Positions 2,966 through 4,071 of a stretch of DNA of 11,915 nt are shown here, in pieces. Below the pieces are notes generated by a model. That model had not been told where the DNA came from and did no database searches. It saw only the letters and a list, made by a program, of their open reading frames with translations. This DNA comes from a virus (taxonomy: Duplodnaviria > Heunggongvirae > Uroviricota > Caudoviricetes): the IMG/VR virus record IMGVR_UViG_2671180012_000001; one strand, written 5' to 3'. Each line of letters opens with the position of its first letter. Within the stretch, counting starts at the first letter, position 1. Both the position numbers and the translations under genes were made by a program.

Positions 2966-3163
2966 ATGGTTGCTGTAAATCATATACCACACCTTGTACA
3001 CACACAAACGGCCTTTGTGTGGCGTTTTCTGGCACTGAGTGCCGGAGAATCTCAAATCATCCACGTAACCGCCTGGACGGAACGCGAAGCGCGTAGCCGT
3101 TGCCCGTCCGGTTGTGTTGCTGTATTCGCTGCAAAAATCCGCCAGGGAGTGAGTCATGCTTAA
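2966..3163 (+). CDS. Hypothetical small protein (65 aa), first gene of the rightward operon
   Basis: ATG at 2966 with AGGAG at 2956-2960 (5-nt spacing), about 100 nt downstream of the predicted rightward promoter. Translation: MVAVNHIPHLVHTQTAFVWRFLALSAGESQIIHVTAWTEREARSRCPSGCVAVFAAKIRQGVSHA. Its stop overlaps the next ORF. It corresponds to the last 65 codons of the long 2093..3163 track ORF. Confidence 0.4.
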   Translation: MVAVNHIPHLVHTQTAFVWRFLALSAGESQIIHVTAWTEREARSRCPSGCVAVFAAKIRQGVSHA

Positions 3164-3341
3164 AACCTTCCGTGTATTTGCCCGAGCTGTTAACCCAATA
3201 GGCCACACAATTGGTATCGCTCAGAATGTGAAGGCTGTTAATGTTCAGACGGCTATTGCTGCGGTGAGAAGCGAATCATCAGAATATGGCTTATCACAAG
3301 TCATTATTTCAGCAGTGTATGAATTAAAAGAGGTGCATTAA
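3156..3341 (+). CDS. Hypothetical protein (61 aa)
   Basis: ATG at 3156 preceded by GGGAGTGAG (3145-3153); stop overlaps the next start (TAATG at 3339-3343). Confidence 0.5.
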   Translation: MLKTFRVFARAVNPIGHTIGIAQNVKAVNVQTAIAAVRSESSEYGLSQVIISAVYELKEVH

Positions 3342-3532
3342 TGCAGGAAATTACATTACACGAAGCCGCTGAACGTGCGCACCAGACAGAAATTATTTGC
3401 CGCCTTCTTGAGGTATACCCGAACAAAATTACAGATGCTGATATATCCGCACTGGCGAGCCTACTGGCGCGTCTTTCGGGAAGTGTCGCTAGTTTTTTGA
3501 TTGAGGAAGAAAGTAAGCTGGTGGGGGATTAA
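3341..3532 (+). CDS. Hypothetical protein (63 aa)
   Basis: ATG at 3341 preceded by AAAGAGGTG (3327-3335); overlaps the upstream stop in TAATG, indicating translational coupling. Confidence 0.55.
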   Translation: MQEITLHEAAERAHQTEIICRLLEVYPNKITDADISALASLLARLSGSVASFLIEEESKLVGD

Positions 3533-3754
3533 ATGAATACAGAACGGGAAGTCTTTTTTAAATTGTTAGCATGTGCAGAAAGTTCATTAACTTTAAATAA
3601 TTCAGCAAAAGCAATATTAAATATGTGGCTTGATTGCATAAATGACAATGAAGATGCAAATATTGCTTATGGCCTGTTGTCACTTATTGATGAATCAGCA
3701 GAAAAACTCAATGACGCAATAAATAGTGCCCTGCTATCAAATAAGTCGAGTTAA
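3533..3754 (+). CDS. Hypothetical protein (73 aa), markedly AT-rich gene
   Basis: ATG at 3533 immediately after the upstream stop (TAA 3530-3532), with GTGGGGGA upstream. By eye its coding sequence is much more AT-rich than its neighbours. Confidence 0.5.
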   Translation: MNTEREVFFKLLACAESSLTLNNSAKAILNMWLDCINDNEDANIAYGLLSLIDESAEKLNDAINSALLSNKSS

Positions 3755-3771
3755 GTCGAGGAATAAATAAT

Positions 3772-4071
3772 ATGGAAATGAAAAATTCTGGCTTTATTGC
3801 CAGCGGCCCCGCTCGACCTGAATTTATGAACGGCGATATTTACCGCGATAAATACGGCGGCACGGTAACGATTAAAGGCGTGGCAGAACGGCGCATCACT
3901 TACCGCCGTGAGGGGTATAGCTATGACTGCGTGATGCCTGTTTATCAGTTCCGGCGTGATTTTCCCCTGGTATATGCCGCACCCCGCAGTAAGCCCATCA
4001 GCAGGGAAAAAGCGTGGGGAAATATCCAGAAAATGAAAACCATGATTAACGGATTCAGAGGTAAAAAATGA
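3772..4071 (+). CDS. Hypothetical protein (99 aa), translationally coupled to the replication gene
   Basis: ATG at 3772 with GAGGA at 3758-3762; its stop overlaps the start of the downstream helicase gene (ATGA at 4068-4071). Confidence 0.55.
   Translation: MEMKNSGFIASGPARPEFMNGDIYRDKYGGTVTIKGVAERRITYRREGYSYDCVMPVYQFRRDFPLVYAAPRSKPISREKAWGNIQKMKTMINGFRGKK

Follow-up and report, generated by a model that had tools for sequence, protein, structure and literature searches.

IMG/VR record IMGVR_UViG_2671180012_000001, an 11,915-nucleotide (nt) stretch assigned to the Caudoviricetes and referred to here at its full length as the window, is an Escherichia coli satellite of the phage-inducible chromosomal island (PICI) type. 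Within it lies a run of small genes, here called s1 to s5, that leads directly into a primase/helicase gene (Table 1). This region probably represents a Gram-negative PICI's early operon, that of the replication zone, working through the steps proposed below, and its AT-rich fourth gene, s4, is probably an imported allele. Judged by analogy, the module is the satellite counterpart of the left operon of P4. It is ordinary, widely distributed and already annotated, so that the account given here is mostly a correction of an initial annotation of the same DNA and involves no insertion event. The new points are modest, namely the exchange of cassettes at the fourth position (slot 4), the presence of two alternative control cassettes at a Kil-like leader gene, and a barrel-plus-basic-helix model for proteins of the RgdR family, to which the s5 product belongs.

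Five small genes packed against a primase gene

Five small plus-strand genes reside within positions 2966-4071, encoding proteins of 65, 61, 63, 73 and 99 amino acids (aa), and the same five are annotated by RefSeq in a 99.9% identical copy. The initial annotation had counted six small open reading frames (ORFs); the sixth member of the run is the 584-aa primase/helicase itself. The s1 and s2 genes overlap by 8 nt (ATGCTTAA), s2 and s3 share one nucleotide in the sequence TAATG, the TAA of s3 directly abuts the ATG of s4, s4 and s5 are separated by a 17-nt gap carrying its own GAGGA, and s5 overlaps the primase gene by 4 nt in the sequence ATGA. A Shine-Dalgarno-like purine run precedes each start, inside the 3′ end of the preceding gene. 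These junctions (-8, -1, 0, +17 and -4 nt) bear out the earlier description of genes packed tightly into the primase gene, and equally close packing recurs in nine related loci, including those in which other families occupy the middle positions. From their arrangement, the five genes appear to be a single, closely coupled unit that leads into the primase gene, probably on a single transcript and with coupled translation.

The five small ORFs are real coding sequences. By the Nei-Gojobori method, applied pairwise to these genes and their homologues at nine other loci, the ratio of nonsynonymous to synonymous divergence (dN/dS) is 0.12-0.34 for s1, 0.10-0.75 for s2 (0.26 relative to locus L011, at 66% aa identity), 0.06-0.30 for s3 and 0.26-0.49 for s5. 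For s4 the sole informative comparison, with locus L010, gives 0.06 (four synonymous changes to one nonsynonymous), the other s4 alleles being distant and too diverged for a dN/dS reading. The ratio is below 1 for all five genes, that is, substitutions are biased toward synonymous changes throughout, and the coding status assumed in the initial annotation holds. A longer ORF of 356 aa (2093-3163) was rejected as a gene; it is antisense to the YlcI/YnfO-family gene, and both annotation and conservation are confined to its last 65 codons.

Such a run could also consist mainly of translated spacers that prevent polarity and maintain coupling, most of the products being dispensable. This would suit a module in which junction geometry is conserved and the content of slots 2-4 is not, in which pseudogenised slots occur, and whose P4 counterpart controls termination through the translation of kil/eta itself, but it is quite improbable given that dN/dS is well below 1 for s1, s2, s3 and s5 across 66-97% identity, that relatives of s5 have been demonstrated to be active as proteins, and that s4 is confidently predicted to fold.

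None of the small products had been thought recognizable from sequence, whereas two of them belong to named families: s1 matches the Icd-like family NF033153 (63.7 bits, cutoff 25, E = 1.2e-17) and s5 matches PF13973, or DUF4222 (E = 3.7e-23). The s2, s3 and s4 proteins have no Pfam or NCBIfam match, and their PHROG families (3672, 1478 and 2196, respectively) are all of unknown function. Sequence searches of the Protein Data Bank (PDB) with s1, s2, s3, s5 and an s4 profile gave nothing below E = 0.29, PADLOC returned no defence match for any small ORF, and hhalign found no relationship among the s2, s3 and s4 families and the alternative families that fill these slots elsewhere, which are not detectable paralogues. 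Satellites often carry defence cargo, and s2, s3 and s4 are short basic and acidic neighbours (pI, or isoelectric point, of 9.4, 4.7 and 4.2), as might be expected of an anti-phage or toxin-antitoxin cargo module; however, their lack of a PADLOC, Pfam or NCBIfam match and their placement inside a replication operon, and not in the zones known to hold variable cargo, make such a module extremely unlikely.

Table 1. Features of the window, with the basis on which each was assigned
Feature	Positions	Strand or orientation	Basis
Integrase (int)	1-1242	left end, co-oriented with alpA	Pfam Phage_integrase
alpA	1244-1501	left end, co-oriented with int	Pfam Phage_AlpA
Bro-N protein gene	1558-2136		
YlcI/YnfO-family gene, 101 aa, divergent	2470-2775	-	NF041551, E = 1.6e-17; phrog_6522
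Operator-like motif GGTGTGTTTCA, three copies	2794-2806, 2842-2853, inverted 2865-2877		repeat search
Sigma-70-like promoter, TTGACG-17-TAACAT	2837-2865	+	consensus scan
Leader stem-loop (2903-2936), then conserved box CTAACCAACAACG	2903-2950	+	present in 9 loci
s1, Icd/Kil-like leader gene, 65 aa, pI 9.7	2966-3163	+	NF033153
s2, basic protein, 61 aa, pI 9.4	3156-3341	+	phrog_3672, E = 9e-46
s3, acidic protein, 63 aa, pI 4.7	3341-3532	+	phrog_1478, E = 2.5e-34
s4, acidic protein, 73 aa, pI 4.2, slot-4 family allele	3533-3754	+	phrog_2196, E = 1e-28
s5, DUF4222/RgdR family, 99 aa, pI 10.1	3772-4071	+	PF13973, 81.3 bits, cutoff 27, E = 3.7e-23
Primase/helicase, 584 aa	4068-5822	+	D5_N, DUF5906, Pox_D5; P4-family primase C-terminal domain
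Iterons (C)ATCTACC(C/T), direct and inverted copies	5830-6052		repeat search; gap 3′ of primase gene

The AT-rich gene and the exchange of slot alleles

On actual calculation the composition of the run is not uniform, as the initial annotation had supposed from s4. This gene has a GC content of 0.320, and a GC content at third codon positions (GC3) of 0.230, compared with 0.475 for the island; it is among the lowest 0.4% of all 222-nt segments (z = -2.8), and it contains the segment of lowest GC in the whole window. When the s4 protein was redrawn with the codons of the island, GC3 came to 0.465 ± 0.056 and none of 5000 draws reached 0.233; by the same procedure s1, s3 and s5 were unremarkable and s2 was marginally low. 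The AT-richness of s4 is real, and amino-acid content explains only part of it.

This composition had been taken as the mark of a recently acquired insert. By its position and alignments, s4 is instead a divergent allele of a conserved slot-4 family. A full-length homologue is found at the same position in all seven of the other islands compared, and no slot 4 is empty among the loci examined. These homologues, 75-80 aa in length, are 16-31% identical to s4 in alignments that cover both proteins completely, and they share the motif MWL...N(D/N)(N/E)E, in which W32, L33, N39 and E40 are invariant. A search with a slot-4 profile gave 673 clusters, and every named match among the 120 listed is from Escherichia. 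The s4 product itself is modelled by AlphaFold2 (AF2) as a two-helix hairpin (helices 3-35 and 39-72) with a mean confidence score (pLDDT) of 91.9.

It is very unlikely that an existing operon recently gained 3533-3754 as an additional cistron of foreign origin. The lowest GC of the window and a GC3 far below expectation would be in keeping with such an event, as would the narrow distribution of the allele, which only 130 of 5426 complete E. coli genomes carry, always at no less than 97.7% identity, and which forms only six 90% clusters among 5.8 billion proteins. On the other hand, besides the homologue of similar length in every island compared, the synonymous divergence (dS) of s4 from L010, 0.09, matches that of its flanking genes (0.07-0.15), so that s4 is no younger than the block surrounding it. 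The edges of an insertion are also missing: relative to an O157:H7 island, DNA identity is approximately 100% at 2947-3410, 27-50% across s4 and 67-93% across s5, the divergence reaching into both neighbours (s3 at its 3′ end, s5 at its 5′ end) with no clean boundaries. The s4 gene, full-length s3 at a minimum of 95% identity and s5 at the same threshold are each present in 130 genomes, and these equal counts suggest that the s3, s4 and s5 alleles travel as one block.

Low GC could alternatively have been selected in the DNA itself, s4 serving in H-NS nucleation, in unwinding or as an internal regulatory site, rather than having been inherited from a donor. In every island compared, the slot-4 gene has a lower GC content than its flanks (0.39-0.41 for the homologues, 0.48-0.54 for their neighbours), the synonymous sites of s4 are strongly AT-biased, and a promoter-like site lies on its minus strand (3648-3620). 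Selection at the DNA level is nonetheless unlikely in view of the conservation seen in the protein, both in the four invariant residues and in the ratio of substitutions relative to L010, and of the other slot-4 alleles, which work at a GC content of 0.39-0.41. There are also no iterons in s4; these cluster 3′ of the primase gene, by which a role for s4 as the replication origin was ruled out.

We therefore return to the allele reading of s4. Because its synonymous sites are so strongly AT-biased, the allele would have had a history in a lower-GC background, and it probably replaced the resident allele, having come from a lower-GC relative; its very low diversity fits such a replacement. Exchange of this kind can be seen between other islands. 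Loci L005 and L006 share 98% aa identity in s1 and 96% in s5 and only 36% in slot 4, where dS is 1.03, compared with 0.04-0.06 in the flanks. Old, divergent alleles are evidently shuffled through slot 4, in the manner of cassettes, between otherwise near-identical islands.

The mosaic extends to the rest of the module. At least a partial match to the 1.3-kb region is present in 1442 of the 5426 genomes, and by blastn s1 is found in 912, s2 in 278, s3 in 282 and s5 in 1565. Ten annotated loci share an Icd-like gene, usually three short genes (two in L012), a DUF4222 gene and a replicase; the replicase may be of the primase family, a DUF927 protein or a RepA-type helicase, and whichever of these is present, the ATGA junction is retained. 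The middle positions are filled by several unrelated families, with fusions and chimeras among them, as in L006, where two slot genes are fused into one of 154 aa (3966-4430). The window primase shares 99% protein identity with that of L005, and slots 2-4 of the two are wholly different; conversely, L009 and L010 are 95-100% identical in s2-s5 and have primases that are only 80-83% identical. Recombination within the module is evident from these comparisons.

Leader gene, control region and DUF4222 protein

The Icd-like match of s1 extends to P4, whose Eta/Kil protein matches NF033153 at 73.1 bits (E = 1.4e-20) through its C-terminal 65 residues, which correspond to Kil; the N-terminal part of Eta is Phage_ASH. 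Cell killing and inhibition of division have been published for the Kil/Icd family. In P4, translation of kil/eta decides whether transcription continues (summarized in Tommasini et al., 2023). By analogy, s1 is probably the gated leader ORF of a P4-like early operon, under a protein/operator switch rather than an RNA switch.

Upstream of s1, TTGACG-17-TAACAT is the only plus-strand sigma-70-like site that a consensus scan finds within 2100-6200, and the three GGTGTGTTTCA copies bracket this predicted promoter. The leader stem-loop that follows shows compensatory changes in three of its ten predicted pairs, across nine islands that have different promoters. Other islands possess a promoter at the same place with a repeated motif of their own, and several have their own variant of the YlcI/YnfO gene; such island-specific pairs of variant and motif are, as far as these sequences can tell, the pattern expected of an immunity region. 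From its position, the YlcI/YnfO gene would be the regulator of the operon; we infer its pairing with the operator-like repeats, as we do every protein function proposed here.

A different arrangement is found in two related islands, in which isrK and C4 RNAs reside directly upstream of s1 (3703-3888 in L008 and 4353-4541 in L004), and in L008 the C4 loop is complementary to 15 nt covering the s1 Shine-Dalgarno sequence. The corresponding stretch of the window is 2776-2965, where the promoter and operator-like repeats occupy the place of the C4/isrK cassette. An Rfam search of the whole window, with E values up to 1, gave no match and hence no C4/isrK immunity RNA, so that s1 is not the first ORF of an operon gated by C4 or CI RNA here. 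The RNA cassette and the YlcI/YnfO-plus-operator-repeat cassette look like two interchangeable control cassettes for one operon. Within the s1 coding sequence there are two stable hairpins (3001-3021 and 3026-3052), the first of which is followed by GCGTTTTCTG in a terminator-like arrangement. They were rejected as a translation-sensitive terminator, being kept only among near-identical s1 alleles and not in divergent s1 types.

Two further observations concern the Icd-like family. s1 also matches PHROGs 1743 and 6196, both labelled "transcriptional repressor"; an ORF overlapping kil in the P4 record (8168-8584) is annotated "transcriptional repressor, cI gene product", and this annotation is probably the source of the label. 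The immunity factor of P4 is an RNA. In vB_KppS-Ant (LR881103.1), a 16.5-kb "phage" record that looks like a capsid-forming satellite, the Icd-like domain forms the C-terminus of a 324-aa protein (8200-9174), which is followed by two small genes and a primase gene.

At the other end of the run, s5 has the DUF4222 domain, the length of approximately 99 aa and the strongly basic character of RgdR (pI 10.1, compared with 10.09). RgdR is ECs1581 of O-island 51, a 99-aa DUF4222 protein of pI 10 that activates LEE1 and represses motility; it also increases Congo-red binding, and its DNA binding is non-specific. Its residue 20 affects activity, the engineered change R20N reducing type III secretion, and natural variants differ. 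Residues 20-22 of s5 are NGD rather than the RGD tripeptide; among the 120 closest clusters NGD (50) and PGD (46) outnumber RGD (12), and RGD is thus not a feature of the family. The AF2 model of s5 (pLDDT 72.6 overall, approximately 86 for residues 20-70) is a small five-stranded beta-barrel followed by a basic C-terminal helix (78-96). A genome-contig scan with s5 found two loci only. The initial annotation had proposed the small genes as candidates for host takeover, and this suggestion gains by analogy from s1 and s5, whose families (Kil/Icd and RgdR) have published effects on the host.

Island setting, proposed working and meaning

The window has the layout of a Gram-negative PICI. The int and alpA genes lie at the left end, followed by the Bro-N gene, the small genes and a replicase of its own with adjacent iterons, and 3′ of the primase come genes for a single-stranded DNA-binding protein (SSB), the major capsid protein, a decoration protein, a second helix-turn-helix (HTH) protein and the small terminase. 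The int, alpA, Bro-N, primase, SSB, capsid, decoration and small terminase (terS) genes are in PICI order; the island is approximately 10.7 kb in size, and its packaging and capsid genes are limited to those for the major capsid protein, the decoration protein and the small terminase, short of a complete virion or lysis set. To judge by how PICIs are usually laid out, the iteron cluster probably serves as the replication origin.

Positions 1-10946 align at 98.6% with E. coli CFSAN018748, where the island sits between the two halves of a lambda-like portal gene. By this split gene, the present copy sits within a lambda-like prophage's portal gene, which is the helper-embedded PICI configuration. 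In the window the portal fragment after the island (10723-10946) is followed by ten Ns (10947-10956) and then by mtfA (11079-11915), and the window probably spans a scaffold join. Near 10660 there are repeats of GTGTATTGCA, possibly att arm sites, that are similar to repeats found upstream of the L001 int gene. A second AlpA/HTH-like gene in the late zone (8488-8871) has a weak PADLOC match to PDC-M06B (E = 0.0028).

The closest comparison is with the replication zone of E. coli PICIs (EcCICFT073; O-island 51, or CP-933C, of O157:H7), which has the same order of int, alpA, Bro zone, small genes, DUF4222, replicase, SSB and late genes. All E. coli PICIs analysed encode RgdR (Fillol-Salom et al.). 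O157-type proteins share 70-74% identity with s5, and the O157:H7 island next to roxA/pepT shares 97% identity with s1, 97% with s2 and 73-78% with s3. The window differs from the E. coli PICIs and RgdR in having N20 in place of R20, another slot-4 allele, a YlcI/YnfO-type control region and a location inside a prophage portal gene; the O157 island, unlike the window, has a DUF927 replicase and a full capsid, protease and portal set. Helper-embedded PICIs likewise interrupt a lambda-like late gene and are divided into Integration, Bro, Replication and Late zones, and their listed portal-gene sites include the B:Phage_portal_2 type (Tommasini, Mageeney and Williams, 2023); that paper offers no analysis of the small genes that separate the Bro zone from the primase.

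The left (early) operon of P4 runs kil/eta, epsilon, orf151, orf106 and alpha, with 8-nt overlaps, and entry into it is gated at the leader ORF, as proposed here for s1. The window shares with it an Icd/Kil-like first ORF, small overlapping genes and a P4-family primase/helicase (TIGR01613, 109 bits, cutoff 108.7). In contrast to P4, no epsilon or orf106 homologues are detectable among s2-s5, the Ash part of Eta is absent and Rfam finds no CI or C4 RNA in the window; P4 orf151 and DUF4222 align in hhalign at E = 0.002 with a probability of only 13.5%, and orf151 has no Pfam match. The hallmark genes of P4 (psu, delta, sid and epsilon) are also missing, the late zone being of capsid, decoration and terS genes instead. 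In the immI operon of P1 (c4 RNA, icd, ant), the first ORF is similarly a small one of the Icd family, coupled to the gene that follows. L008 and L004 share a P1-like C4 RNA, whose loop in L008 can pair with the s1 ribosome-binding site, as the P1 immI RNA reportedly acts. The window differs from P1 in lacking the C4/isrK cassette and in that the downstream genes are for replication rather than an antirepressor.

Together these comparisons suggest the following working of the operon. The promoter, bracketed by its three operator-like repeats and with the YlcI/YnfO-family gene diverging from it, would drive one mRNA extending from the five small genes into the primase/helicase gene. The first gene, s1, as the counterpart of P4 Kil and P1 Icd, would act as a leader ORF that gates expression of the operon; in related islands a C4-type antisense RNA would pair across its ribosome-binding site, and here the protein/operator cassette would take that part. 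Overlapping or abutting stops and starts would hand ribosomes from gene to gene, such that the message is translated, and protected from polarity, down to the primase. Slots 2-4, whose contents vary from island to island through recombination, would supply short proteins that, as P4 epsilon suggests by analogy, are the likeliest helper- or host-specific binders, s4 being an acidic two-helix hairpin allele that probably arrived by allelic replacement from a lower-GC relative. The s5 protein, a small SH3/Tudor/KOW-like barrel with a basic tail, would be ATGA-coupled to whichever replicase the island carries.

Several observations weigh against this working. The promoter is a 9/12 consensus match, and such matches number 3 in the sequence, compared with 4.7 expected after shuffling. 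The direct likeness between s1 and Kil is weak (24.5% over 53 aa, pairwise E = 0.2). Foldseek searches against the PDB gave only generic helical hairpins for s4, and KOW/SH3-type matches for s5 that agree on the class of fold, none of them significant in either case. An exhaustive phmmer search with s4 identified no donor for this AT-rich allele, giving only the s4 cluster itself and low-complexity matches. Slot-4 dN/dS reaches 0.75-0.97 in some pairs, and constraint on this slot can be weak. Loss of slots is tolerated: the DUF4222 gene of L009 (4116-4414) is frameshifted, slot 3 of L011 (3825-4016) has an internal stop, and L012 has four genes, one of them a chimera of two slot families (3769-3987). 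Because some islands have lost or fused slots, not every small product is essential.

A bolder reading, to which we give only a small chance, is that of a two-tier takeover module, in which a DUF4222/RgdR mini transcription factor is joined to the exchanged, helper-specific binders of slots 2-4. The first tier could be the Tudor/KOW-like barrel and basic DNA-binding helix of RgdR, universal to E. coli PICIs, which could act on RNA polymerase in the manner of CarD or the C-terminal domain (CTD) of UvrD, or as a counter-silencer of H-NS. The RgdR phenotypes, with LEE (the enterocyte-effacement locus) up, motility down and Congo-red binding up, resemble loss of H-NS function. A role of s5 directed at RNA polymerase or against H-NS is a lead, not a result. 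In the second tier, the AT-rich s4 from a lower-GC lineage would shift the helper or host target that is engaged.

RgdR alters virulence-gene expression in enterohaemorrhagic E. coli (EHEC), and if the takeover reading is true, this effect would be a by-product of switching on satellite replication. The small genes in question lie just upstream of the replicase in DUF4222-carrying satellites, which are present in approximately 29% of complete E. coli genomes. A conserved operon led by a Kil/Icd-type gene, with an RNA or protein control cassette and swapped middle slots, offers targets for work on how Gram-negative satellites initiate replication and handle their helpers.

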